From Tagaea sp. (GTDB lineage: Bacteria; Pseudomonadota; Alphaproteobacteria; CACIAM-22H2), in contig CBDIIB010000005.1 of the NCBI GenBank assembly GCA_965279525.1, positions 736,001 through 800,000 of the forward strand: a DNA stretch of 64,000 nt, given 5' to 3'. The position numbers and the translations under genes were made by a program. The notes under the pieces are model-generated. The model was not told the DNA's origin. It saw only the letters and a program-made list of their open reading frames with translations, and searched no databases. How positions within the stretch are numbered: position 1 is the first letter of the stretch; each line of letters starts with the position of its first letter. Shown in pieces: positions 1-24,702 of the stretch.

Positions 1-398
1 AGCGTTCCGGCGCGCGGTGATAGCAGGAAAACCCATCCGATCGCGATCGCGATTGGTGGCATTAGAATCGGGATAATCGGTAGGATTGCGGCGATCCATC
101 CCATGCGGGCATCCGTCCGCTCGTTCAGCCAAGCGAAGAACGTGCCGACCAACAGCGCAATGATGCCACTCGCGCCGATCACAATCGTCGTATTGATTAG
201 CGTCGTGCCGATCGAAGGGAGCTCGAGCGCTTCGATGATCGGGTTCGGCCCCGCATCGGCTCCTTGAAAGGCCAGCCGGAACAGCATGGATCCGAGCGGA
301 AAGACAACGAGTGCCGCCGTGACGATAGCGACGATCCCGATGGCGACGAACTCGCTCCCCCGTACCCGCGCCTTCTGCCCGACGGTTGCGGTACTCAT
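1..398 (-). CDS. ABC transporter permease (Fe3+/polyamine/thiamine-type), 5' part; runs off window
   Basis: Own translation from ATG 398 (overlapping the ATPase stop): MSTATVGQKARVRGSEFVAIGIVAIVTAALVVFPLG...LINTTIVIGASGIIALLVGTFFAWLNERTD...; hydrophobic FbpB-like pattern. Confidence 0.85.
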   Translation of the reverse strand, partial: MSTATVGQKARVRGSEFVAIGIVAIVTAALVVFPLGSMLFRLAFQGADAGPNPIIEALELPSIGTTLINTTIVIGASGIIALLVGTFFAWLNERTDARMGWIAAILPIIPILMPPIAIAIGWVFLLSPRAGT

Positions 399-1630
399 GC
401 AACCGAGTCCTGCTTCGGGGCCGTCTCATCGAAAACCATGAGGTTCTCGGGCTCTATCGAGAGCCAGGCGAGCGAACCTTCCTGGACGTCCGCAGGACTT
501 ATCAGCCAGACCCGCATGGAAGTTCCAGCGAGGTCCACCGCATACTCGAACAGCGTACCCAAAAACAGGATCGCACGGATCGTGACCTGCCACGTGTTCT
601 GTCCGGCGGGCTGCTCGCGTGTGAGCCGGTAATGTTCGGGACGTCCAATGACCGTCACCGGACGCCCGACCATCGCGGCCGCTTCGCCTTCGGAGACCAG
701 TGCGTGGATTGTCGCCTCCGGGGTGTGAATTTCGATTTGCCCCTGCTTGAATCCCGTAACGCAGCCCGCGCTCTCATTCACCGAGCCGAGGAAGCGAGCA
801 ACATAGGCAGAATTTGGGCGACGGTAGAGATCAACCGGCGGCGCGAGCTGAACAATTCTACCCGCCGATAGGATCGCGATCCGATTCGCGAGAGCAAGCG
901 CTTCGGACTGGTCATGCGTGATGTAGAGAGCCGAAAAGCCTATCAGCCGCTGCAGTTCGATGAGTTCGATCCTGAGCTGCGCGCGGACCGCCGCATCGAC
1001 ATTTGACATCGGCTCGTCAAAAAGGACGATCTTGCTTCCGGAAATCAGCGTCCGGGCCAGTGCGACCCGCTGCTGCTGACCACCGCTAATCTCTCCCGGG
1101 TGCTGGCCCGCAAGATGCCCGCAGCGGACACGCTCAAGCATCGAGGTCACCTGTGCCGTGACCGTCTCGTTTGGGATGTTCCTCGAACGGAGCGGATAGG
1201 CGACGTTCTCGAACACGGTCATGTGCGGCCACAGCGCATATGACTGAAAGAACATCGCTACGCCGCGCTGCTCGGGTGGCACATCAATGCCCTTCGCGAC
1301 GGAGAAGACCGTTCGACCGTCGAGCTCGATCTCCCCCTGATCCGGTGGCTCGAGCCCGGCGATCGCGCGCAGCAGCGTTGTCTTACCGCAACCGCTCGGA
1401 CCGAGAAGAACCATGAACTCGCCGGGCTTCACGTCCAACGAAACGCCGTTGACGGCCAATACTTCTTCGCCGTCGGCGCGTTCGTACCGCTTCACGATGC
1501 CTGAAAGACGGATAGTCGGAACGGCTCCCGAGGGATTGGTCGTATTGCGCCCTGAGTTGGCAGAGGTTGAATTCACGCTCAAAACTTGGCCTCTAACTTT
1601 TGAAACACCAGACAGCCAACGACCGCTCAA
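395..1630 (-). CDS. ABC transporter ATP-binding protein (PotA/FbpC-like, TOBE C-terminus); true start may be downstream
   Basis: Walker A GPSGCGKT, signature ISGGQQQR, Walker B VLFDEP, H-loop ITHD. Confidence 0.92.
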   Translation of the reverse strand: MSGRWLSGVSKVRGQVLSVNSTSANSGRNTTNPSGAVPTIRLSGIVKRYERADGEEVLAVNGVSLDVKPGEFMVLLGPSGCGKTTLLRAIAGLEPPDQGEIELDGRTVFSVAKGIDVPPEQRGVAMFFQSYALWPHMTVFENVAYPLRSRNIPNETVTAQVTSMLERVRCGHLAGQHPGEISGGQQQRVALARTLISGSKIVLFDEPMSNVDAAVRAQLRIELIELQRLIGFSALYITHDQSEALALANRIAILSAGRIVQLAPPVDLYRRPNSAYVARFLGSVNESAGCVTGFKQGQIEIHTPEATIHALVSEGEAAAMVGRPVTVIGRPEHYRLTREQPAGQNTWQVTIRAILFLGTLFEYAVDLAGTSMRVWLISPADVQEGSLAWLSIEPENLMVFDETAPKQDSVA

Positions 1631-2676
1631 CGGGACTGTATCAGGCCGTGAAGCTCCTTGACCTTCTCTGCCGAGACGAATTCAGGCAGCACATATCCTT
1701 CAGGCAGTTGCAGTGTGTCCGTGCCTGGGAGCATCGAGGCGCCGTCTTTCCCGTTGAAGATCTCTTGCCCTTCCTTGGTGAGCATGAAATTCATGAAAAG
1801 CCGCGCCGCCATCGGGTTCGGCGCCTTTGCGGAGACTGCCATGAAGATCTCGTTGCCCGTGGTCGTCGGCGGAATGATGTATTTTACAGGGGCGCCTGCG
1901 CTCACGATCGGTGGAACGAACGGTGACGGTGCCAACGGAACAATCGCATACTCACCGGCAGCAAGGCTCTGCAAGGCAGTTACGACGCTCTCATAGCTGC
2001 CCGGGTTCTGCTGGGCGAGCGCCTTGATATACTGGTCGCCATACTTGTCCTGCCACATTTTCAGGACCGTGTTGTAAAGCGGGCTTGCGTCCCACTTGGG
2101 AAACGTCATCTTCCCCTTGTAAGCGGGGCGCAAAAGATCCTCGAATTTTCTTGGGATCTCTCCATCTTTCAGTAGGTCGGTGTTGTAGGCGAACCCGTAA
2201 ATCTGCGCGATAATGATCGCTGTGCTTTCGAAGCGAAACGCATTCTTCGGCCACGCCGCAAGCGCAGGAACGTCCCGGTCGCTGACTTTCGCGAACGTGC
2301 CGTCCTTGGTGAGATTCTCGTAGACTTGCTCCGTCGAGATGCTGAGGAGGTCGGCGACGACCCGTCCCGATTGCCGCTCCGCCAAGTAACGCTGGGTCAT
2401 CACGCCAGTGGGTGCCCGATGCACCTGTACTTTCACGCCATAGCGTTTCTCGAAAGCGGAAACGACGCGGGTGTTCTGCTCCGGCCCGAGCGTCGAGTAC
2501 CAGACGACGGACCCTTCCTTCTTGGCTGCAGCCGCAAGTTCATCGATGCCGGCGGCAAGCGCTGGCTTCGCGGCGTTGGCACCGAAAAATGCGCCGAACG
2601 CAATCGTCAGCGCGGCAAGGAACGTTCCAGATTTTCTGTTTCCCATGGGTGACCCTCCCTGATCCGACGCCGACAA
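1627..2676 (-). CDS. ABC transporter substrate-binding protein (Fe3+/AfuA-like family)
   Basis: Signal peptide, AAKKEGSVVWYS, APNPMAARLFMNFMLTKEGQ motif. Confidence 0.9.
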   Translation of the reverse strand: MSASDQGGSPMGNRKSGTFLAALTIAFGAFFGANAAKPALAAGIDELAAAAKKEGSVVWYSTLGPEQNTRVVSAFEKRYGVKVQVHRAPTGVMTQRYLAERQSGRVVADLLSISTEQVYENLTKDGTFAKVSDRDVPALAAWPKNAFRFESTAIIIAQIYGFAYNTDLLKDGEIPRKFEDLLRPAYKGKMTFPKWDASPLYNTVLKMWQDKYGDQYIKALAQQNPGSYESVVTALQSLAAGEYAIVPLAPSPFVPPIVSAGAPVKYIIPPTTTGNEIFMAVSAKAPNPMAARLFMNFMLTKEGQEIFNGKDGASMLPGTDTLQLPEGYVLPEFVSAEKVKELHGLIQSR

Positions 2677-2971
2677 CGCCGGACATTGAATACGAAACGC
2701 CGCTTCTCTGACGCCTTCGAAGACGCCGAGGATGTTGTTGATTTGAAGCTACCGACCGTCACGTGTGCTTGCAACGCGCAACTGCAATATGTGTGTAGTT
2801 AATATATATGTATTTTGAGTCGACTGTATTGACTCACGGTATCGAGTTTCAATTTATACCGAATGAGAGATCGTTTACCCGCAATGACCGGCTCCAGAAG
2901 CTGCGGCCTGAGCCCAATTAGACCAACCACCATCCATTCTGACCGGCATCCTCGACCTGACTGAGTAACTT

Positions 2972-4357
2972 CTAAACTTTCCCGTCGCGATTAAGTTCAA
3001 TGGGCTCAATTGCTTTCAGGTCGTCGCCCGAAGTTATATTGCGCCGAATTTCGAAAGCTCCGAGGGCTACAACCGGATCGACATTTTCAAGGTTCTCGAA
3101 ATCGATGCGAGCAAACTCATCTCGCGTCGCGCGAACACTAAAGAGATAGTCATCGTGCTCAATACCCGTCGCTCGATCGATCCGCTGCGAATAGCCAGAT
3201 ACGACAATCGTTTGAGCACTTGGAACGGCAGAAAATGTACTGCCAAGGAGATGCAACCCCACGCCATGGACATGGCGAAGGTACTCAGCACGCAATTGCT
3301 TCTTTGACTTCCGCCTTATCGCGAGACCTTTTCTGGACGGTTCCGCATCAGCCAGTCGGATCGGTAAGTCTTCGATCTCCGGAAGGTCCACGTCCAAAAC
3401 GACAAAGCGGCCGTCATCTCGAACATCAAAAGACACAATGGTCTCTCGAGGCCACGATATTCCGTCCACGGCACTGCTTAGCACTTCCTCCATCAGCGAA
3501 ACGTCGCCATGGAGGCGTTTCTGCCATTCCTCGGCCAAGCGATCCTGCTCTATGGAATGCTCACTCTTACGGACTTCATATGCTGCAAGGTCAGCATGCC
3601 ACTTCTCAACTGCTGCCGCATGATTGGCAGCCGCCAACTCCTCATTCAATTCAAAATCTGAAACAGCTTTGGCATAAGCCGCCTCATCATCCCGAACAGC
3701 CTGCTCAAACGCACGACGCTTCCAAGGAAGTAACCTTGCAATAAAGCCAATCGAACGAGGCGCGGGTTGATCTGGCGAAAGTTGCCGCTCTGGTAGGAAT
3801 GGCTGATTGGGCGGTGATTCGTCAAAGACGGCACGCACATAAGTCGGGTGTATATCGGGCGGCGGCGTATCGAGATGGATATCGACAATCTGCCTGGTCT
3901 CGGAATTGATCTTGTCGGCCTGCTCACTTAACCAATCAAAAATACGCTCTCCTTGCTGCTCCCACATCAAGGCGATTTCCTTACGGGAAAGCGGCGTATT
4001 TCCTCTCGCCGTTAAGGAGAGAGTGCCGTCATCTTTCAGGCTCAGCTTACAATTGGCTAACTCTTCGGCACGCTTCCGAACTTCCCGAAGCTTTGCAGCT
4101 TCCTTTTCGGCACGAGCCAGCTCTCTTTCATAACGACGCTCCGCCCGCTCCAACTGGCTTGGCGACATGCGGTCCCCGCCAATTTTCTGGCGGAAAGAAA
4201 GTCCTGTCCCAGGGATTCCAACATTCGAATATACGCCGCGTTTGCTTACGCTAATGGACGCGCCGCGCGGACCGAGCGACCAACCTATGCCGCCAGACCC
4301 AACACTCATCCGGACACCAGGCAATAGCTTTATGCTTTTCCTAAATCGTAGCCCCAT
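2972..4357 (-). CDS. DUF4236 domain protein with coiled coil and a C-terminal domain like the non-catalytic part of long Mrr-type proteins
   Basis: N-term MGLRFRKSIKLLPGVR...GIPGTGLS is the DUF4236 signature; C-term VDLPEIEDLP...VSGYSQRIDRATG; 7 bp after the helicase gene. Confidence 0.8.
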   Translation of the reverse strand: MGLRFRKSIKLLPGVRMSVGSGGIGWSLGPRGASISVSKRGVYSNVGIPGTGLSFRQKIGGDRMSPSQLERAERRYERELARAEKEAAKLREVRKRAEELANCKLSLKDDGTLSLTARGNTPLSRKEIALMWEQQGERIFDWLSEQADKINSETRQIVDIHLDTPPPDIHPTYVRAVFDESPPNQPFLPERQLSPDQPAPRSIGFIARLLPWKRRAFEQAVRDDEAAYAKAVSDFELNEELAAANHAAAVEKWHADLAAYEVRKSEHSIEQDRLAEEWQKRLHGDVSLMEEVLSSAVDGISWPRETIVSFDVRDDGRFVVLDVDLPEIEDLPIRLADAEPSRKGLAIRRKSKKQLRAEYLRHVHGVGLHLLGSTFSAVPSAQTIVVSGYSQRIDRATGIEHDDYLFSVRATRDEFARIDFENLENVDPVVALGAFEIRRNITSGDDLKAIEPIELNRDGKV

Positions 4358-11262: not shown

Positions 11263-13581
11263 CTATAAGGCCGTCGGTCTACAAATGCTCTCGATAGCGT
11301 TGTAATGAACCGCATCACTGGCCTTCATTAATTCAACCAAGGAATTAGCTGCGCGGTCTGCCTCTTCTACAGTCATCGAAGATTGAGTGATCAGATCGTC
11401 GAGGCTATCACCATGCGACTCAACCTGGCTGAGGCGCTCGAGCGCAGCAAACTTTGTCCTGTCAATTTCCGGAGGCAATCCCGACAGGAGCTTCCGGATC
11501 TTCTCGTCCAAGCCGAAGGAACCGGGGACTTTGAATGACAAAAATACATCAAGAACTTTTCGTAGCGCGTTTGGCACAACGAAGAAGTAAGTAGCGGGGT
11601 CGTCAATCTTGCGAATGAAGCGAAGGATAAGGTGAAACAGATAGTGGTACTCAGATTCGTATTCGCGAATGTACTTAGGCATATTCTGGAATCTTGTCCG
11701 GCGATCGGTTTCTCCCGCCTTCTGAAACGAATTTAGAAACACGAGCGCGGCAGCTGGCTCTCTTCCGGTCTCTTCCTTGCTTCTCGCTCTATTCTTGAGC
11801 CACTTCTTAACTTCATTCATGAAGTTAAGGTTATGGGTCAAAATAAAAAGCTGTGAAATCGAATCATCTAATCGCGCCTTAAGCATGCAGAACGCATAGT
11901 TGAGCGCGCCGCTGTCCAAGCTCGAAATCGGATCGTCGAGGACAATGATCAAGTCTTTCAGGCGCCGGCCATCTGCTTCGAGCATTGTCAGGAAGTAGCA
12001 AAGGGCTATGGCGGTCCTTTCTCCTTCGCTGAGCCAGCCGGTCATCGGCGCTCCGCTTCTGAAAATTTCATATCCTTCATCACGAGGCCTGAACTCAATT
12101 TCGGTACGTCCGAGATAGTTCGCAATAAGCTTATTTAAGGTCTCGGCAGCCCCTTGATGCTCTCGCATACGACGCTTGAGGGCATCGATTTCTTCCCTTA
12201 CGGCATCACGCGCGATCTTCTTTTCTTTTGCAGTATCGACGGCGATTTTTTCGCTACTCTCCAGTGAAGCGTACTCTTCATAGTTTTCCCTAAGATAGTG
12301 GCGCCTCAAGGAGTTCTTGGCATGGTCCTGCTCCGTCGCAAAGTCGTCGTGCGCCTTATTATGGGCCCAGATCACATCCACTAAAGTTGCCATGCCGGTA
12401 GAGAGTAGGCGATCAACCTCAATTGAAGTCTCGGCACTGATCACCTTATCGAGATCTATCGCGACGTTCGGGCGACTTAACTTGGCCCTCAAAGCCGAGA
12501 CGAGAGATTCGAGAATCTCAATGCCTTTTCCCCGCGCCGTAGCAACAATCTCTGACGCGGACTTGAAGTCTTCTTGCCTGACTGAAATGTCATTCGAGGA
12601 GTACATCATCAGCGATCGAAATTTCTCCACGGAACGCGTCGTGGCATCGTGAAGGGTCTGAATTCCGGCAATTAGTGCGTCGTACTTGTCGTCAATCGCA
12701 GTCGCAAGGCTCTCCAAGCGGCCATGTGGGATATCACTTGAGCAAAACAAGCATTTCGATAGTTCCTTTGATTGGTGATACGAGATGCCCGTCTTGATCC
12801 ACGGCAGCATCGACTCGTTATCCTTTAGCTCTTTAAGCGAAATCGATCCGAGCGTAACGGCGAGACGATCACGGCACTCACTGACGAGCTCGGAGATAAA
12901 TAGATCTTCGAATGTTGGAACAACCAGCTTTGGCAGTGGCGCTGCTCGATCGGCAAGCGCTACGTAGCCCTTGATCTGGGCTTCGGTCACCTGAAGTGAA
13001 GTGCCAACGTCCGGATCTTCGCTGTAGGCCTTTGCAAGTTGAGTTGCATTAAATTTTCGCGCGCCTTGACGAGCATTCGCCTCGATGCTTCGAGCCATTG
13101 CCGTTTTTCTTGTCTCAAACGCCTTACTGGCTTCGCGCTGAGCTTTGTCTGCTCTCTCGTATTCTTCTTCGAGATCCGGGAGTTTTTTTTCCAAAGTTTC
13201 GCGCTGTTTTGCGAGATCAGCTTGCGCCTTTCCAATAAAGTAAATCGGACTTGCGCTTCCTGAAGTCCACTGGAGATTCTCGTCCACGAAATCACCATTG
13301 AACACAAGAATGCGGTCTTTCAAGCGATCAAGATTGCGGTCGCTTTGAATCTCAGATGCATCGTCAAGTGAGAATTTGAAGCCAGATTCGGGAGGCAGCT
13401 TGTCGGCTATTGCACCTTTCTGAATTGATGCAAAAACCCGTGATAGCGACGTCTTTCCAGAACCATTGAATCCATAAATGAGATTGTAGCGTTTGAACTC
13501 AGGCAGATCAGACACGACCGCAGGATCCCGAAATACATGAATGCCTGTAATCGATGAAATCTTGGAAATGATCGGCGGCAT
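11263..13581 (-). CDS. rloC: RloC-like anticodon nuclease (AAA_13 ABC-ATPase, zinc hook, HEPN)
   Basis: GFNGSGKT Walker A, CLFC zinc hook in coiled coil, LSEGE signature, LDDPISSLD Walker B, LTHN, ESEYHYLF, PNALRKVL, Rx6H (RLSQVESH); GGAGG RBS before ATG 13581. Confidence 0.88.
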   Translation of the reverse strand: MPPIISKISSITGIHVFRDPAVVSDLPEFKRYNLIYGFNGSGKTSLSRVFASIQKGAIADKLPPESGFKFSLDDASEIQSDRNLDRLKDRILVFNGDFVDENLQWTSGSASPIYFIGKAQADLAKQRETLEKKLPDLEEEYERADKAQREASKAFETRKTAMARSIEANARQGARKFNATQLAKAYSEDPDVGTSLQVTEAQIKGYVALADRAAPLPKLVVPTFEDLFISELVSECRDRLAVTLGSISLKELKDNESMLPWIKTGISYHQSKELSKCLFCSSDIPHGRLESLATAIDDKYDALIAGIQTLHDATTRSVEKFRSLMMYSSNDISVRQEDFKSASEIVATARGKGIEILESLVSALRAKLSRPNVAIDLDKVISAETSIEVDRLLSTGMATLVDVIWAHNKAHDDFATEQDHAKNSLRRHYLRENYEEYASLESSEKIAVDTAKEKKIARDAVREEIDALKRRMREHQGAAETLNKLIANYLGRTEIEFRPRDEGYEIFRSGAPMTGWLSEGERTAIALCYFLTMLEADGRRLKDLIIVLDDPISSLDSGALNYAFCMLKARLDDSISQLFILTHNLNFMNEVKKWLKNRARSKEETGREPAAALVFLNSFQKAGETDRRTRFQNMPKYIREYESEYHYLFHLILRFIRKIDDPATYFFVVPNALRKVLDVFLSFKVPGSFGLDEKIRKLLSGLPPEIDRTKFAALERLSQVESHGDSLDDLITQSSMTVEEADRAANSLVELMKASDAVHYNAIESICRPTAL

Positions 13582-13715
13582 AGATTTCGTCCCTCCGGAG
13601 AAGGGTACGCTCCAAGATTGCGCAATTTGTGTCAACATACATCTGTAATGTGGGAACCTGGTTGCGTGCTCTGGGCATCGAAGCGAGGAATCTGCCTCCG
13701 TAATTCTTATCGTTC

Positions 13716-13836: not shown

Positions 13837-15879
13837 TTAGGGCCTCGGACGACGATCCGGATCGTTCTTCCCGATCGTGAAATTGTTCCGCAGCGCCCCT
13901 TTGTCGTGGAGTTCCTTGCGATCCATGACCCGGAATTCCTTTGGAATGTCCTTCCGCGGATAGAAGCGCGTCGGCATCCCCCGCAGCGAGAGCGGCTTAA
14001 TACGGAAGAACGTGCAACTTCCGACGATAAGGTCGGGATGGATTTTTCGACCGGGCTGCTTATCCTCATAGGTCCGCCGCAGCTTGTTCTGCGAGATGTA
14101 CTGCCGGTCGAACGCGTCGAGATCCCCCGTGAGGACACGCGCTGCAGGCCCGCCATGCAGGTCGCGGTATTCCTGCAAATACCCATCGCGAATTAGTGCT
14201 GAGACTGCTGTCTTATCGACCATCAGCCGCTTGGCAACCTGTTCCAGAGAGTGGGTCGGATTTTTGATCCCCATCTCCGCGTAGGCCCATTTGTGGGCAC
14301 TATCCCGATCGAAGATCATGCGCTCAAGGAGGTTGTGCTCCTCGGGATCGAACTTGATCGGGATCAGCTTCCCGCTCAGCACCGCGCTCACGACGGTCGA
14401 CCACGGATAGTCGACATTCTTCTTCAGCATTTCGACGACGACCTTCGTCGTGACCTGGGTGCCCGAGATGAGCATGGGGCGGACACTCGCCTCGAGTGCC
14501 GTAGCGATGGCGTCAATCTCCGCGCGCCGGTATAGCGCCTTAGCCATGCCGACCAGACGCAGGTACTCCGGCTCCACCTGCTTGAGCAGGCCGCTGTCGC
14601 ATAGATCGGCCACGACATCGTGCCTCAGGCGCCATTCTCCCCGGAGGGTTCGCGCGGAGATCATGCTCTGTAGGGCCGACATCACCTCATCGACCTTCTT
14701 CCGGCTGATCCGGAGAGGCGTACCGCTTCCCTGCCCCTCGGACAGCAGAACACCGGGGAATTTCAGGAGCTCGGTGATCCGTCGGTGGCTCCAGCCGTAC
14801 TTGGCCTTCACGTCCCGGAGCATGATGCCGTCGGAAACGTCCCCGACGGCTTCGGCCAGCGGGGTACCGGCTTTCAGGGAGATTTCGGGATGTGCCTCGA
14901 GAAAGGACCGGACGGCCGGAACGACCACGGCCCAGATCTCAGCTTCTGCACTCCATTCCCGCAGCAGGATCTGGAAGTAGCCGAATGCCTTCTTGGTCCC
15001 GTAGGCGCCAGCCCGCTCCTCCGAGATCATCTTCTCCTCCTCCAGATAGCCAAGGAGGGCATCCGGCCAGCCCGTGGCGATCTGGTAGGCGTGCAGCACG
15101 GCCTGGGACCAGTCGAGATGCGTGGTCCGGTGTCCCGGCTTCCTGGGCTCGATCAAGCGATCGACCGCGTTCTTTGGCCTCCGAGCGGCCTTCTCCTCGT
15201 CCATGCCAGCGGCCAGCGAGAACACGAACTTGAAGAGCCTACCGGTACCAAGATCCCGGATCTCGGGTGCCAGAGCCTCGCTGGCAGCCTTGGCCCGCTC
15301 GGGATCGAGGGATACGAGGTCGGCAAGCCCGGCAATCGCCACCCGGGTATCTTCGTCGACCTGATCGGGGGCCCCCGCCGCGATCGGCTCCCCACAGGCG
15401 TGGCAGGTCAGGAAGTCCGACTTGCCCCAGGAGAACTCAGTATCGCAGTGCGGGCAGGCCCCGATCAGACGCTCACCGTTCGCCGGATCGGCGATGACGA
15501 AGGTCAGGTCCCAGGACATCCGATGAATGCCCGTCGCTCTGAAGTCATGGGGTGCGATCCGGGGTGAGCCCCCGGAGAACACCGCCCGCTCGATCCAGTT
15601 CCCAGCGAAGCAGACCAGACTGACGAACTCCGGGACCGCCTCATAGCGACGCCGATCCAGCTCGGCTTTGGACACACCCAACCGCGCTGCGACTGCCTCC
15701 AGGCCGGCCCCCGTCCGGTGGAACTCAGACAGGCTGCGGGCTTCCGCCTCCGTCGCCGGGAGGATCGAAGACGGCCCCGGCAGTACGAGATCCTTAGCGA
15801 CGCGAAGGAAGTAGCCGTTGAGGCTCTCGTCCGGCTGCAGAGAGAGCGTGATGGAGAAGGCGGTCGTGATCTTATCCAT
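13837..15879 (-). CDS. tniQ: TniQ/TnsD-like target selector, 680 aa, with long HTH-containing C-terminus
   Basis: N-term PDESLNGYFLRVA, zinc finger CPHC...CHAC, C-terminal wHTH-like SLEQVAKRLMVDKTAVSALIRDGYL; last gene of the tns operon. Confidence 0.9.
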   Translation of the reverse strand: MDKITTAFSITLSLQPDESLNGYFLRVAKDLVLPGPSSILPATEAEARSLSEFHRTGAGLEAVAARLGVSKAELDRRRYEAVPEFVSLVCFAGNWIERAVFSGGSPRIAPHDFRATGIHRMSWDLTFVIADPANGERLIGACPHCDTEFSWGKSDFLTCHACGEPIAAGAPDQVDEDTRVAIAGLADLVSLDPERAKAASEALAPEIRDLGTGRLFKFVFSLAAGMDEEKAARRPKNAVDRLIEPRKPGHRTTHLDWSQAVLHAYQIATGWPDALLGYLEEEKMISEERAGAYGTKKAFGYFQILLREWSAEAEIWAVVVPAVRSFLEAHPEISLKAGTPLAEAVGDVSDGIMLRDVKAKYGWSHRRITELLKFPGVLLSEGQGSGTPLRISRKKVDEVMSALQSMISARTLRGEWRLRHDVVADLCDSGLLKQVEPEYLRLVGMAKALYRRAEIDAIATALEASVRPMLISGTQVTTKVVVEMLKKNVDYPWSTVVSAVLSGKLIPIKFDPEEHNLLERMIFDRDSAHKWAYAEMGIKNPTHSLEQVAKRLMVDKTAVSALIRDGYLQEYRDLHGGPAARVLTGDLDAFDRQYISQNKLRRTYEDKQPGRKIHPDLIVGSCTFFRIKPLSLRGMPTRFYPRKDIPKEFRVMDRKELHDKGALRNNFTIGKNDPDRRPRP

Positions 15880-15881
15880 CG

Positions 15882-16925
15882 TTACGTCTCCTCATCGACG
15901 GTATCGTCATTCGTCGATCCGTCCCGAGCACCGCTACCCCGATTCCGGGTCGTGAGTTCGCCAGCCGCCGAGCGGAGCGCCTTCTCCGATTTTGTCATCT
16001 TGCGAGTAGGCTTCTTCTTTCTCGACGTCGCATCGTCAACCTCGTAGCCCTCCTCCTGATCAGGTAGGAGAGCGCACACGGCTGTTTGGATTGCGTCCTC
16101 GTCGACCCCGGCGCGCTTCCTACTGCGCGCCTCACGGGAAGCTTCTTCGACGAGGTTGAAGATCCATCCGAAAAGCCCATTTGTGTAGGCGAGCATACGG
16201 CTCGCGACTTCCTCACTGCAGAGGTAGTCGGTGTCCGGGCATCCGAAGGCCTTCGAGTACTCGTTGAGAACACTCCGGAACTCGATGAATTCCGAAGCCT
16301 TCAGTTCCTCCCCGCCACTACGTCGGAAGTCCGGGTTCTGCGTGTCGCAGAACCCACGCAACCGAATGTTACGAATACGGCGGCGACGAACCTGCTCGTC
16401 CATCTGGATGACCATCTCGGATTCTTCGACACCGGCCATGACGATCCCGATCCTGGCATCATTCATCAGGCCTTTGATCGCATCACATACACCGGCCCGA
16501 TCTGTTCCGACCTTTCTGGTCAGATGCTGGAATTCATCCAGAACCAGCACGCGCACACCATGGTGCTTGAGGAAATGGACAAGCCGATTCCGGCGACTTC
16601 CGTTCGTCTCTCTGTTCAAGGTAGGTGCACCCAGCACAGTCAGAATTTCATCGTAGAATCCTTGCAGCGACGGATTGCTCGGCACCTTCACATAGGAAAC
16701 CGGCCGGATCGGTCGACCATTCTCTGTGCAGGGTGGGTGAAGCTCTACGAAGCTTTCGAGAATCGTCGATTTTCCACTACCTGCAGGTCCAATGACGGAA
16801 GCACATCGACCCTCGCGCCCATCGACTGCGACTTCGTAGAACCGCTCGAGATCCGACATCGCCCGCGTGAACTGACGCGTGTCGAGAACCATCGCATGAA
16901 CCTGTTTCCGAAGTGCTTCATCCAT
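15882..16925 (-). CDS. tnsC: TnsC/TniB AAA+ transposition ATPase
   Basis: Walker A GPAGSGKST, Walker B LVLDEFQHL, QVRRR arginine finger, TNGLFG. Confidence 0.92.
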   Translation of the reverse strand: MDEALRKQVHAMVLDTRQFTRAMSDLERFYEVAVDGREGRCASVIGPAGSGKSTILESFVELHPPCTENGRPIRPVSYVKVPSNPSLQGFYDEILTVLGAPTLNRETNGSRRNRLVHFLKHHGVRVLVLDEFQHLTRKVGTDRAGVCDAIKGLMNDARIGIVMAGVEESEMVIQMDEQVRRRRIRNIRLRGFCDTQNPDFRRSGGEELKASEFIEFRSVLNEYSKAFGCPDTDYLCSEEVASRMLAYTNGLFGWIFNLVEEASREARSRKRAGVDEDAIQTAVCALLPDQEEGYEVDDATSRKKKPTRKMTKSEKALRSAAGELTTRNRGSGARDGSTNDDTVDEET

Positions 16926-16942
16926 AGCTGGTCTCCTCGTGG

Positions 16943-19000
16943 TTACTTGGGTTGAAGGGACGTCTTCTTGAAGGTGTAGAGCGGAGCCTGAGCCGAGCTG
17001 GCCGAAGTGCCTGACGCCTTACGAACTTTGCCGGCGTGCCGCTTCACCGAGGGGATCGGCGTCGAAGCACCCGCGGTAGGCTTTGCTACTCGATGCCTTC
17101 CCGGCTCGTTCGACGGAGCTTCAGGGTTGAGCTTCCTCGGCCTACGTCGATTGATCTTGCCGATGTCTCTCATGATCTCCGCGCGAGCACGGCGATACTC
17201 CTGGTCCGTTCCGGGGGCTTTCTTGGACTTGAGACGTGCCTCGATCAGCCGGTGCATCCGCAGGGAAACACCTTCTCGCTTGCTCGGATCGACGGCGGGA
17301 ATCTCGACAAGTTGTCCAGATGCCGAATCCAGAACGAAGATCTTTCCGACGTCGTTCGGATCAAGGAGCGCTTCGACTACAGGATTCCGACGATGGTAGG
17401 CATGTGCATGGATGCGGATGCGCTCAACGGCGACACCGCCATATAGGATGCCCTCGACCCGGATTCCTGACCGGGTCGCCACGCTCTTTTGGCTCAGCAT
17501 GGTTGCTTCGCGGATTTCTCGTGCCGACAGTTTCACAGGCGGCGGAAACTTGACGCTCAAGTCATTCCAAGCTTGAAGGGGCGAACACCGAAGCGTGGAG
17601 TGGGGCTTCTTGTGATACAAGTCGCAGATGGTTCGTGCGATTAAGCTGTCAAGCTCTGCGAACGTCATACGGGCGTTTTCTTCCGGCTTACGATCAGCTT
17701 TCGCCGCGACATTGCTTTTCGTCGTACCGGCAATTCGATGAAGCAGGAAAGAGCAGAAAGACCCGAAGATTCTCTCGACCCTGGACTTCATATTGGGCGC
17801 ACGGGGCGGCAAGATGACAAAGTCGATATCGAGATTCCGCAGCGCTTCCTGAACTGCATGGCTCAGGAAGTCCTTTCCCCGATCGGTCACCAGCTCGATA
17901 GGAACGCCGAAGATAGGCCAGTCCGACTTAACGCCGAGTGAGTTCAGGAAAGCTCGCGTTTTCGGGAGCATCGCGAAGCGGAGTGTGGCCAGAACAGCAG
18001 AGGCATCCGGCGCTGCGACGTCGAGCAAATATCCGGGGATCATTCTGGTTTTATGGTCAATGATGGCCGTAAGCCAGACACGCCCGACAGTGACGCAGCC
18101 CTCGTCATCGAGGATATCCAGATCGATTTTTGTATGGTCGATCTCCCAGCGTGCCATTGGACCAAGAGAGTCGGGCCCGGCCATCGACTGCTTGTAGTTG
18201 AAGCGGGCGATCCGCTTTCCTTCTTCATGTTCCAGGCGCCGCAACCCACCCATCGCCTCGAGGCGACGCTTGATCGTCGAAATCGAGGGCCGCGGCCCTG
18301 TTGAAAGACGAGCATCTCGAGAGATCTTCTCGTGGAGATCTGTTTCGATTAGAGCGATTGCTCCTGCATAGTTTGCCTCATCTGCGTCGAAGTAGTGTTC
18401 GGCGCATAGTTCGGCCATCCAGATCTCGATCAGCGGATCGCAACGAGGACCACTCGTTCCACGAAGATGGAATTGGGGCACAAGGAGACTTTTGTTGGCA
18501 CTTTTCCACGCCTGTTTGATCCATCTGTAGATGGTTGCACGCGATGGAGCGTTCCGACCTTGCAGCCATTTCGGGTAGCCAGTTTTTTCGAAGTGCGTCT
18601 GGTGAATTTCGAGGGCTTTTTCCTTGGTGAATGCTGAGATTGTCCCGTTGGGTTCGATCGAACCGAACGCTTTGACGAAAGCCGCACGATAATTGGCGTG
18701 CTCTGCGTATGTCACACCACTGACGGTTCTTCGAAGAAGCGCCGTCATGAACGTGTCTTTGCGTACTCCGACTTTAGTCGGCGCCACATTGACGACGATC
18801 TTCTCGTCCATGAATTTCGTCATGAACTCGTCACGCGTTAGCTGGAAGTGGCGTCCGGTTCTGAGTGAGACGAACGTGACACTTCCGCCCGGGTTCTCCC
18901 CGCTGATGCGACATTGTTCCCCGTCGATCTCGAACGAGCTTCCGAGGCGAAAGCCGAACGCGACAGTGGGAACCGGAGGGAACGAATTTCGGGTAGACAT
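16943..19000 (-). CDS. tnsB: TnsB/TniA DDE transposase (Mu-like C-terminus)
   Basis: WEIDHT (D), VTDRGKDF (D), KSRVERIF (E), YHKKPHSTL, HTH APSRATIYRW. Confidence 0.93.
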   Translation of the reverse strand: MSTRNSFPPVPTVAFGFRLGSSFEIDGEQCRISGENPGGSVTFVSLRTGRHFQLTRDEFMTKFMDEKIVVNVAPTKVGVRKDTFMTALLRRTVSGVTYAEHANYRAAFVKAFGSIEPNGTISAFTKEKALEIHQTHFEKTGYPKWLQGRNAPSRATIYRWIKQAWKSANKSLLVPQFHLRGTSGPRCDPLIEIWMAELCAEHYFDADEANYAGAIALIETDLHEKISRDARLSTGPRPSISTIKRRLEAMGGLRRLEHEEGKRIARFNYKQSMAGPDSLGPMARWEIDHTKIDLDILDDEGCVTVGRVWLTAIIDHKTRMIPGYLLDVAAPDASAVLATLRFAMLPKTRAFLNSLGVKSDWPIFGVPIELVTDRGKDFLSHAVQEALRNLDIDFVILPPRAPNMKSRVERIFGSFCSFLLHRIAGTTKSNVAAKADRKPEENARMTFAELDSLIARTICDLYHKKPHSTLRCSPLQAWNDLSVKFPPPVKLSAREIREATMLSQKSVATRSGIRVEGILYGGVAVERIRIHAHAYHRRNPVVEALLDPNDVGKIFVLDSASGQLVEIPAVDPSKREGVSLRMHRLIEARLKSKKAPGTDQEYRRARAEIMRDIGKINRRRPRKLNPEAPSNEPGRHRVAKPTAGASTPIPSVKRHAGKVRKASGTSASSAQAPLYTFKKTSLQPK

Positions 19001-19069
19001 CGGTTACTCCAGGCAAAGCTCGGGTGTGGCTCAGGTTGAGCTTTCATTTCGGGTGCAGGACTTGGCTTG

Positions 19070-19834
19070 TTAGGCGGAAACTATCAGGCGGCTTTCGAGA
19101 CCGAGTTTGGCCTCCATGTCCGTATCGAGGACTTGCCTGGCGACAAGGGCGTAGATGTCAACCTCATGCACGGCGTCGGCGCGGAATACTTCGACGATCT
19201 TGCGTACAGTCACGTTCGGGTACCGCTTGATCGTTGCCCTGATACTGGCGACCATCGGCGCTTCTACACGTCGGTTCCGATAGTGCCAGAGCAGTTTCCG
19301 GTTGGAGTACTGGGGCTCGATCCGGATTTCTCGCTCTGTCAGAACACGATATGACCAGCCGAGTTGCTCGAAAACCTCGCGCTCTCCTCGGAAGCGCGGG
19401 TTCTCGCGTAGATGTTTCTCGAACGTGGAAAAGGTCTTGATCTGAACGATTTCGAACCGTCCACCGATCAGCCTCAGTTCGACGTCCGGATATGTCGAGA
19501 CAACCTTCTCTCCGACCTCGTAGACCACCGTGAAGGGCTGCGTAGTGTAGGAAACGACGCCCCTGTCGAAGTGGAACATCTTGAAGGCATCGGCCTCCAG
19601 GCCCGATTCGGCTTCTCCGATACCGATCGATTTTGGACTTGCGATCCTCTGCGTTGGTCGAATTCCATAGCCTGGCCTGACCTCCCGGGATGGTTTTCCG
19701 TCAGCCGCTTGCACGATGCTGCCGCAGACACCTTCCGAGGTTCGGAATCGCAGGATGTATTTGCCTTCGACTGGGCCCTTCGCAAAGCGAAACGGCCCCT
19801 CTGAAGGTTTGCTTTTGTGACGTGACTTTGACAT
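19070..19834 (-). CDS. tnsA: TnsA endonuclease
   Basis: ESGLE, QPF, YPD...VQIK PD-(D/E)xK-type motifs, GWSYRVLTEREI, C-terminal wHTH. Confidence 0.88.
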   Translation of the reverse strand: MSKSRHKSKPSEGPFRFAKGPVEGKYILRFRTSEGVCGSIVQAADGKPSREVRPGYGIRPTQRIASPKSIGIGEAESGLEADAFKMFHFDRGVVSYTTQPFTVVYEVGEKVVSTYPDVELRLIGGRFEIVQIKTFSTFEKHLRENPRFRGEREVFEQLGWSYRVLTEREIRIEPQYSNRKLLWHYRNRRVEAPMVASIRATIKRYPNVTVRKIVEVFRADAVHEVDIYALVARQVLDTDMEAKLGLESRLIVSA

Positions 19835-19974
19835 CAGAACCTCTCCTGCTCGATATCGCCAGGACCAGTACCGGACATGCGCAGACGGTCTTCGGCGTCG
19901 CCGGAAGTTCGATCTGTCAGGTCTGGAAGGTCGCCAGTCGGCCCAGGGGCCGACGCCTCACGCGTCGCCGCTGG

Positions 19975-20079
19975 TTAGCGGGATATCGAGATCAGGTGAG
20001 GAAGGGCGCGGTTCATGATGGAAACGTTGTACCTGAAATTTTCGGAAGTTTCAACAATCCGATTCAACGTGGCAGACAT
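19975..20079 (-). CDS. Putative 34-aa small protein upstream of tnsA
   Basis: AAAGGAGAG RBS 5 nt before ATG; MSATLNRIVETSENFRYNVSIMNRALPHLISISR. Confidence 0.4.
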   Translation of the reverse strand: MSATLNRIVETSENFRYNVSIMNRALPHLISISR

Positions 20080-20475
20080 CGTCGCTCTCCTTTGCAACCG
20101 AACGCGGCGCGAGCTGGCGTTCGGCAACACAGCGCCGAGTTGTTTTCGGCGCACACACGCCAAGGCTGATTGCCAAGCGCAGGGGAATAGAACATCAGTG
20201 CCGCATTGGTTTTGCACAGAAAAATTGTGTAACTGTCAAGTATATCTATTGAACAAACTCAAGTAATTTAGTAAATATATCAATTATGGTGCTTATTTGT
20301 TCGTCTTTCATATAATAAATGAACTTGAATACTTAGACACTGACAAACGTGTCGATCTTTCCCAACCGGTTCCAGTGGGTCGTTCAATTTGCCGCGCCCG
20401 GTCTTCTGCGGACATCATTAGGGCATTTGCCAGCACGCAGATCGGTTGCCTACCTGTTACCTGTGATCACTGGGC

Positions 20476-20856
20476 CTACTTTGAAACCATGCGCCCTTGA
20501 AGCCAGAAGACGCCTGCAACGTCCGAGCCTTCGACAGGCTGCTCATCGGATTTCCACACGTGATCGCCGATATAGAGCGCAAGTTTGAAGTCGCCGTAGC
20601 TGTCGGGCAGGCGAAGTGGCGTGATCACAAGGGAAGTAAGCTTTCGGCCAAATACTTCGATCTTCTCGATCCACCGGACGGGTCCTTGATACTGGTACTC
20701 GTCAGGCGCGTACGTGTCCTGGGGAATAAGGGCGGCTACACCCTTCATGCTGATCGTGATCGGCTTGAGTTGGTCGCCCGGGGTGCCTGGCTCGTTCTTC
20801 GTCCGGAGGCGGGCGGGATCGTCGATGACGATCGGCTCTGTCCTGTCGATCTTCGT
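20476..20856 (-). pseudogene. 5'-truncated fragment of a hypothetical protein gene near the transposon end
   Basis: Protein-like 90-aa ORF (DEYQYQGPV...GVFWLQG) whose frame continues 36 codons upstream without a start, up to an in-frame TGA. Confidence 0.5.
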
Positions 20857-20895
20857 TCACTGCGTCTGGCGGGCCGTCTTTGAGGCGTCAAATCA

Positions 20896-20916
20896 GCCCA
20901 AAGGACGCCTTTGGGC
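20896..20916. terminator. Perfect 9-bp hairpin inside the transposon end (possible block to gyrB read-through)
   Basis: GCCCAAAGG-ACG-CCTTTGGGC. Confidence 0.45.
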
Positions 20917-20998
20917 AGGGGGTCGAGTCAGAGAAAGTGAGATTCCGGAAATCAATACTTCCGGATTATTTGTTATCTGTCAGATAGATATGCGGATA

Positions 20999-21066
20999 AC
21001 TCGTCGCAATAAGAGTCTCACCATTTGAAAAGTCGTCTCAGTATCTCTGAGTCACGACAATAGACA
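20999..21066 (-). repeat. Tn7-like transposon end with putative TnsB-binding repeats
   Basis: Minus strand begins TGTCTATTGTCGTGACT; imperfect repeats ATTGTCGTGACT / ACTGAGACGACT / GGTGAGACTCTT / ATTGCGACGAGT; sharp GC change at this point. Confidence 0.75.
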
Positions 21067-21074
21067 AACCCCAC

Positions 21075-24702
<3,628 letters not shown>

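Follow-up and report, generated by a model that had tools for sequence, protein, structure and literature searches.

An intact Tn7-like transposon that probably homes to the 3' end of gyrB in Tagaea

In two accounts of Tn7-like transposons, Tn7 combines TnsA, TnsB and TnsC with a long TniQ-domain target selector, has TGT...ACA ends with several transposase-binding repeats that are arranged differently on the left and on the right, duplicates 5 bp of target DNA, and inserts in one orientation just past the stop codon of an essential gene, glmS (the attTn7 site), with its right end towards that gene (PMC10293859, PMC11406308). Attachment sites named for Tn7-like elements in the literature consulted are glmS, ffs, parE, guaC, rsmJ, tRNA genes, comM, yhiN and nrdB (PMC10293859, PMC8649781, PMC11406308, PMC11014353, PMC12452197, PMC9298801). 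Among these, the parE-homing elements (Tn7017/EasCAST; Acinetobacter, ~486-amino-acid TniQ) are described as being directed downstream of parE by a TniQ-family protein (PMC11406308, PMC11014353). gyrB was not named as a Tn7-like attachment site in the portions retrieved by a full-text literature search, for which supplements and subscription papers lay outside scope (Faure 2023, PMC10293859; Benler 2021, PMC8649781; Hsieh & Peters 2024, PMC11406308; PMC11014353; PMC12452197; PMC9298801). Here we describe an intact Tn7-like transposon with a heteromeric TnsA+TnsB transposase, 69,523 bp in length, from a Tagaea genome (G000; further genomes carry similar labels, G001 being the same as G048, G002 as G042 and G003 as G043). 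It occupies positions 687537-757059 of contig C5, and its right part lies directly behind gyrB in the 64,000-nucleotide stretch of that contig analysed here (the window), in whose coordinates the element runs from -48463 to 21059. This element probably homes to the 3' end of gyrB, with its TniQ protein recognising the site and insertion taking place just past the stop codon.

The locus shares with Tn7 all of the features listed above, and differs from it in several respects. The target is gyrB here and glmS in Tn7. Tn7 inserts about 23 bp after glmS, whereas insertion here took place 0-10 nt past the stop codon. No TnsE-like family was named in a Pfam scan of the open reading frames (ORFs) of the element, a scan in which TnsE was not specifically searched for; beyond the TniQ domain, no significant similarity in sequence to TnsD was obtained for the C-terminal half of the selector; and TnsB is only distantly related to Tn7 TnsB. 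The nearest solved relatives of TnsB, TnsC and TnsA come from Tn6677/PseCAST, CRISPR-associated transposons (CASTs) of type I-F3 (E-values in Table 1); in the element described here, no cas genes and no CRISPR array were found. With the parE-homing elements it has in common that both targets are type II topoisomerase B-subunit genes, GyrB and ParE being paralogues with similar C-terminal tails. It differs from them in its target, the region downstream of G000 parE being unoccupied, and in that the last 90 nt of G000 parE and gyrB share only 53 of 90 bases; its TniQ is also longer, 680 against ~486 amino acids (aa).

Both ends of the element are TGT/ACA termini with several asymmetrically spaced transposase-binding repeats. 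The right terminus at 21059 (reverse complement TGTCGTGACT) lies 15 nt from the gyrB stop codon, with the first 17-nt repeat 10 nt inward. The left end begins with TGT at C5:687537, 48,463 bp upstream of the window start, and is directly preceded by ATAGA, which also flanks the right terminus. A preliminary description of this DNA had rightly placed the left end upstream of the window, but had taken a TGT at 21064-21066, 8 bp past the stop codon, as the right terminus and AACCC as the target-site duplication (TSD); the end conserved between elements starts at 21059, and the flanks both carry ATAGA instead. Inverted-repeat searches with the right end (a repeat finder, and blastn-short over 200 kb) recovered no left end; the two ends are alike at only ~17 of 24 terminal bases, and the left end was spotted by eye and then confirmed by pattern search and a site matrix. 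The 17-nt repeats follow the consensus CAGAGAAAGTGAGATTC and lie at offsets of 10, 87 and 118 nt from the left terminus and of 10 and 30 nt, with a reversed copy at 114 nt, from the right; the related element of G001 has the same arrangement, and a scan of the G002 left end also gave 10, 87 and 118. When a matrix trained only on sites of other genomes was scanned over the whole 4.35-Mb genome, its top four matches genome-wide were window position 20929 and the left-end sites at -48453, -48376 and -48345. G+C content is low from about window position -48,500 to 21,059, being 0.50-0.63 over the element compared with 0.65-0.67 for the contigs. The reversed repeat near the right end is perfect and better conserved than the terminal sites, and may be a regulatory operator.

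Elements of the same family were found behind gyrB in two other genomes of the genus, G001 and G002, with TniQ proteins 62-63% identical to that of G000 and TnsA, TnsB and TnsC proteins 47-51% identical. Their right ends start with TGTCGTG, 5 and 7 nt past the gyrB stop codon, and align with window position 21059. The G001 element is ~25 kb long and has GCCGC at both flanks; the G002 element, which spans a contig break, is at least 62 kb long and has CCGCG at both flanks. Perfect 5-bp TSDs, ATAGA in G000, are thus present in all three complete elements, and sit 0, 2 and 10 nt past the gyrB stop codon, that of G000 at 10 nt. The orientation is the same in all three, right end towards gyrB. Because each element has its own perfect and different 5-bp duplication, at differing positions, the three are independent insertions; and since independent insertions recur at the same place and in the same orientation in related genomes, the gyrB end is targeted. 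A fourth matching right end follows gyrB in G045, where a type I restriction gene comes next and then the end of the contig. These data show that the gyrB 3' end is the attachment site of this element family, as the preliminary description had proposed from an incorrect terminus and duplication.

The nearest gyrB relatives lack the element, and in G050 the DNA found at window position -52123 in G000 comes within ~20 bp of the gyrB stop codon. The TniQ family is present in 3 of 21 genus genomes, with a 29%-identical relative in a fourth. The sequence downstream of gyrB was readable in 18 genus genomes: four have the right end of this family (G000, G042, G048 and G045), two have TGT ends of other repeat families (G044 and G038), two have repeat remnants with no terminus (G040 and G035), and 10 show nothing of the kind. 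The first 100 nt past the gyrB stop codon of G040 (L031) hold one transposase-type repeat and an inverted copy ~60 nt apart, by its look the collapsed miniature remnant of an element from another gyrB-homing family. Of the 17 other genus genomes read, 14 have a GyrB tail identical to that of G000, and the remaining three differ from it by one residue. Within the last 120 nt of gyrB, the most conserved DNA is spread over the tail codons, 20-70 nt from the insertion points, a pattern that would be compatible with a TnsD-like footprint; the gyrB 3' coding end is presumed to be the attachment-site determinant.

It is also conceivable that the position is not targeted at all, and that the elements owe it to shared ancestry or to recombination into a variable island downstream of gyrB. 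The region after gyrB does differ in nearly every genus genome and holds relic repeats, and compared with G050, an additional 3.66 kb is present in G000 on the left of the element. The three perfect 5-bp duplications, each of another sequence and at a slightly shifted position, the constant orientation, and distant elements in other families and classes that abut the same stop codon (see below) nevertheless make this explanation extremely improbable, and the odds that chance would place an element at most 15 nt from a given stop codon in a 4-Mb genome are negligible.

The transposition genes tnsA, tnsB and tnsC and a single 680-aa TniQ gene lie co-directionally downstream of an intact gyrB (Table 1), an assignment that matches to Pfam, PDB and NCBIfam entries bear out. 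The TnsA call relies on three weak but concordant matches, the gene being directly upstream of tnsB, and the Pfam rve match of TnsB is sub-threshold. In the TniQ protein, PF06527 was matched at residues 10-128 (E 0.01), and each of the 15 family members gave a match to this domain at E<=1 (5.1e-7 in the best case); the top solved relatives of the family profile in the PDB were TniQ (7u5d, E 0.0054) and TnsD (8v32, E 0.015). An AlphaFold2 model built on the 15-row family alignment had a mean predicted local distance difference test score (pLDDT) of 65.9, with residues ~350-660 mostly at 80-95 (10-residue block means) apart from two lower blocks, and this region was modelled as a string of helix-helix-helix-strand modules. 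Foldseek gave no global match for the whole model at E<=0.001, and local matches to Xis/BldC-type helix-turn-helix (HTH) folds with probability 1.0. The earlier characterization of the protein as a long TniQ with an HTH-rich extension therefore stands on the family TniQ matches, the modelled C-terminal modules and the Foldseek HTH matches.

No cas families were detected among the ORFs of at least 100 aa scanned across the 69.5 kb, which extends to the whole element a statement first made for the window, and a script for exact 18-mer repeats at 40-110 nt spacing found no CRISPR-like repeats in the element. Only one TniQ is encoded inside it, and the 64 kb upstream hold no tRNA genes. Beside this single TniQ, no rival target selector of any known type was thus found in the element, nor were the cas genes with CRISPR array by which CASTs are recognized; targeting is presumably by protein alone. 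By analogy with TnsD of Tn7 at glmS, the 680-aa TniQ would bind the conserved DNA for the last ~20 GyrB residues through its C-terminal winged-helix array. It would then recruit TnsC, and TnsA and TnsB would insert the element a few bases past the stop codon, leaving gyrB intact.

TniQ could instead serve only as an adaptor, with the site being read by another protein of the element or by a host factor at the gyrB end. The candidates within the element are a Lon-like AAA+ ATPase encoded near the left end and a small Cys-rich ORF that precedes it at about window position -48160. The AAA+ gene has counterparts at the same distance from the left end in G001 and G002; it is 62% identical to the G001 gene, and a genome search gave 62-63% for G001 and G002, so that it is as conserved as TniQ. 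A 55% paralogue is encoded at C5:1165762, on what is presumably the left of a second Tn7-like element of G000, and accessory selectors are known for Tn6022, in which TnsF/Orf3 recognises the target together with TniQ (PMC10293859). The 680-aa TniQ, on the other hand, with its confidently modelled C-terminal half of multiple winged helices, has the predicted architecture expected of a direct DNA binder, and no DNA-binding domain was found in the AAA+ protein in Pfam or NCBIfam. We therefore regard a mere adaptor role of TniQ as very unlikely. An Atlas search with the AAA+ protein returned generic 'AAA family ATPase' clusters only, and paralogues of 43-55% identity occur elsewhere in the genus genomes.

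Beyond the genus, in a genome from another alphaproteobacterial family (G321), a TGT end bearing repeats of its own starts 11 nt past the gyrB stop codon and is followed by tnsA, tnsB, tnsC and a gene for a 672-aa TniQ that is 21% identical to that of G000 over its full length. In a class-level search, 3 of 400 other genomes matched the TniQ family profile, in the N-terminal domain only. In a phylum sample of 400 other Pseudomonadota genomes, TniQ of the broad superfamily was detected at E<=1e-20 in 18. Five of these (G748, G471, G530, G787 and G586) have a repeat-bearing TGT end 0-7 nt past the gyrB stop codon and, on the contig that carries gyrB, a TniQ gene 1-23 kb away, which in G586 is oppositely oriented. 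Six others have TniQ and gyrB on one contig but far apart, among them G626, where a TGT 5 nt past the stop codon without clear repeats was left uncounted; in the other seven, TniQ is on another contig and the region downstream of gyrB looks empty. The gyrB-abutting distant elements carry TniQ proteins of 600-760 aa. All 18 genomes read from the phylum sample share the conserved GyrB tail (EPRR-FI--NAL...). The suggestion in the preliminary description that the gyrB site is paralogous to the parE site found no support, superfamily TniQ being near parE in none of the 18 sampled genomes and the G000 parE downstream region being unoccupied. A metagenome scan yielded one contig (L017), which lacks the right end and is uninformative on the site, and a plasmid search with TniQ gave no match.

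Several observations weigh against the reading that TniQ brings this element to gyrB. The role of TniQ at the gyrB DNA is assigned by analogy, the protein's own TniQ match is below the Pfam cut-off (16.9 vs 27 bits), and residues 80-340 have low confidence in the AlphaFold2 model. The conserved AAA+ gene of the left end might be involved. Spacing between stop codon and terminus varies within one TniQ family (5, 7 and 15 nt); for Tn7, in contrast, insertion is described as taking place at a constant distance from the TnsD site. The element with the sister TniQ (29% identical, G003) is located at a TetR/RND efflux operon, and the G003 gyrB site is empty. In G044, G045, G038, G040 and G035, repeats resembling transposon ends follow gyrB, but neither TniQ nor TnsB was detected; these are either relics or cases in which the element contigs are missing from the bins. 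Finally, adjacency to gyrB does not cluster on a tree of 19 TniQ sequences, requiring 6 changes compared with a shuffled mean of 6.3, and because of this a single origin of gyrB homing is not shown by the sequences; the tree was made with a 'quick' method, has long branches, and includes seven rows labelled 'other contig', whose position relative to gyrB is unplaced. With these points included, homing of the element to the gyrB 3' end by means of TniQ remains the likely explanation.

A separate alternative concerns the history of the element and not its target. The 69.5-kb unit may be a fusion of two or three related elements stacked at the same gyrB position, with inner ends and older transposition genes deleted, so that of all the ends, just the left one farthest out and the right one farthest in are still intact. 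Inside the element, at C5:723281-723495 (window -12719 to -12505), 215 nt repeat the 3' end of the AAA+ gene with 81% identity, and a terminus-like stretch of 25 nt is found at 2825; both suggest that stacked insertions followed by deletions may have built up the 69.5 kb. A step in G+C content from ~0.60 to ~0.52 near 2500 points the same way, and repeated insertion at one fixed position would yield the same ATAGA at the outer flanks. Against this, no second tnsABC/tniQ set or right-end array exists inside the element, the 2825 stretch has neither repeat sites nor an ATAGA flank, and the same-family element of G002, at least 62 kb long, indicates that size alone needs no stacking. We treat a stacked origin as a tentative possibility, less probable than a single insertion event. 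As a candidate for the left end of the element, the 2825 stretch was rejected, having no repeat array, no site of at least 14 bits in the matrix scan and no ATAGA flank; it is possibly a relic of an inner left end.

The features of the locus are collected in Table 1. Within the conserved leader that precedes tnsA, an inverted repeat (CTCGATATC ... GATATCGAG) is conserved, and there may be a leader ORF of 13 codons; an Rfam scan of window positions 1-24000, which includes the leader, matched no family. The cargo comprises defence candidates clustered near tniQ (the ProA-like protein, the PDC-S06 AAA_13 ATPase and the DUF4236 protein) and a set of genes for respiration and metabolism, namely those for a narK-like MFS transporter, narG, narH, narJ, narI, NnrS, hemerythrin, a peptidyl-prolyl isomerase, carbonic anhydrase and a Crp-family regulator. 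It further includes TRAP and ABC transporters, GntR and IclR regulators, a P450 with its reductase, FAD enzymes and catabolic genes. In G001, G002 and G045 (L005:85-5317; L026), a type I restriction-modification system separates the right end from tnsA, which is an unusual location for cargo genes. The sister element (L087:1380-2040, which is G043:C3, about 19380-20040; and L007) has its right end at the promoter side of the TetR regulator/RND efflux operon; between right end and tnsA it carries a SIR2-like gene as well as a type I restriction-modification system.

Table 1. Coordinates of the transposon, its ends, its genes and its target in G000 (window positions unless C5 is given).
Feature	Position	Strand	Evidence or remark
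Right end of transposon	20900..21059	-	Terminus 21059; conserved with right ends of G001, G002 and G045
Right TSD copy, ATAGA	21060..21064	.	Left copy at C5:687532-687536
Two inward-facing 17-nt TnsB-type repeats of right end	21013..21049	-	Offsets 30 and 10 from terminus; same offsets in G001
17-nt TnsB-type repeat, reverse orientation	20929..20945	+	114 nt from right terminus; identical in G000, G001 and G045 elements
gyrB, intact	21075..23762	-	Stop codon 21075-21077; Pfam DNA_gyraseB, DNA_gyraseB_C, Toprim, HATPase_c
Conserved leader upstream of tnsA, ~290 nt	19835..20123	-	Conserved between elements (L005:5740-6029) by blastn and alignment
TnsA endonuclease, 254 aa	19070..19834	-	Pfam Tn7_TnsA-like_N 25.8 bits (cut-off 26.5); NCBIfam TnsA-like 55.2 bits (below its cut-off); PseTnsA E 0.001
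TnsB transposase, 685 aa	16943..19000	-	PDB: PseCAST TnsB E 6.8e-41, Tn6677 TnsB 4.6e-34, Tn7 TnsB 1.1e-15
TnsC (TniB-type AAA+ adaptor), 347 aa	15882..16925	-	Pfam TniB PF05621 124.9 bits, above cut-off; VchTnsC E 1.1e-17
TniQ/TnsD-like target selector (predicted), 680 aa	13837..15879	-	N-terminal TniQ domain with Cys4 zinc ribbon; C-terminal winged-helix/HTH array
AAA_13 ATPase, 791 aa, candidate defence gene	11263..13638	-	Pfam PF13166 444.9 bits; PADLOC PDC-S06 E 7.7e-159
ProA-like anti-phage helicase/nuclease, 1946 aa	4365..10205	-	NCBIfam NF058533 2098.5 bits (cut-off 1500); PADLOC PDC-S37
DUF4236 protein, 461 aa, cargo, defence candidate	2972..4357	-	Pfam PF14020 75.1 bits
Terminus-like 25-nt stretch, TGTATTGACTCA...	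2825..2849	+	By reading; adjoins short stretch like outer tip of right end (2810-2850)
ABC-transporter ATPase (395-1630) and solute-binding protein (1627-2676), cargo running out of window	1..2676	-	Pfam
Lon-like AAA+ ATPase, 457 aa	C5:688079-689449 (window -47921 to -46548)		~540 nt inside left end

Several further observations were made outside the element. Immediately beyond its left end, the 3.66-kb stretch at C5:683878-687536 (window -52122 to -48464) is absent too from the empty site of G050; it could represent an island of greater age, and encodes an NnrU-like protein, a defence candidate of the PDC-S14/DUF4357 type (E 5.4e-125) and an ORF of 462 aa. A sequence of ~70 nt at L001:10437-10510 (window -49564 to -49491), and also at C5:703370-703444 within the element, has many copies of 82-90% identity in G000 and related genomes, and ARAGORN calls no tRNA in it. 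The second Tn7-like element of G000 lies on the same contig at ~1165100-1205200, outside the window and more than 440 kb away; its parts include the AAA+ paralogue at 1165762, a TniQ at 1197876-1198283, tnsC at ~1203000 and tnsB at ~1204400-1205200.

With relatives of the element inserted at the same spot in other bacteria, the gyrB end is a dedicated landing site, a new target for a known type of transposon; by analogy, the mechanism would follow the TnsD paradigm. A broader proposal is that the AAA+ ATPase and the Cys-rich ORF, found ~0.5 kb inside the left end in at least two Tn7-like families of the genus, make up a component of this transposon clade whose function is as yet undescribed, such as a second pathway for targeting or regulation, and that gyrB homing is a widespread, as yet unnamed class of attachment site in Pseudomonadota; we hold this to be unlikely. 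Tn7-like elements are valued because they insert a large cargo once, in one orientation, at a harmless conserved site, and a selector for the end of gyrB, a universal and essential gene, would add a new natural safe-harbour site. The cargo of the G000 element shows that a whole respiratory nitrate reductase operon can travel together with defence genes on one Tn7-like unit, which bears on the spread of denitrification traits, and the recurrent relics after gyrB mark this locus as a long-lived hotspot of island building in the genus.

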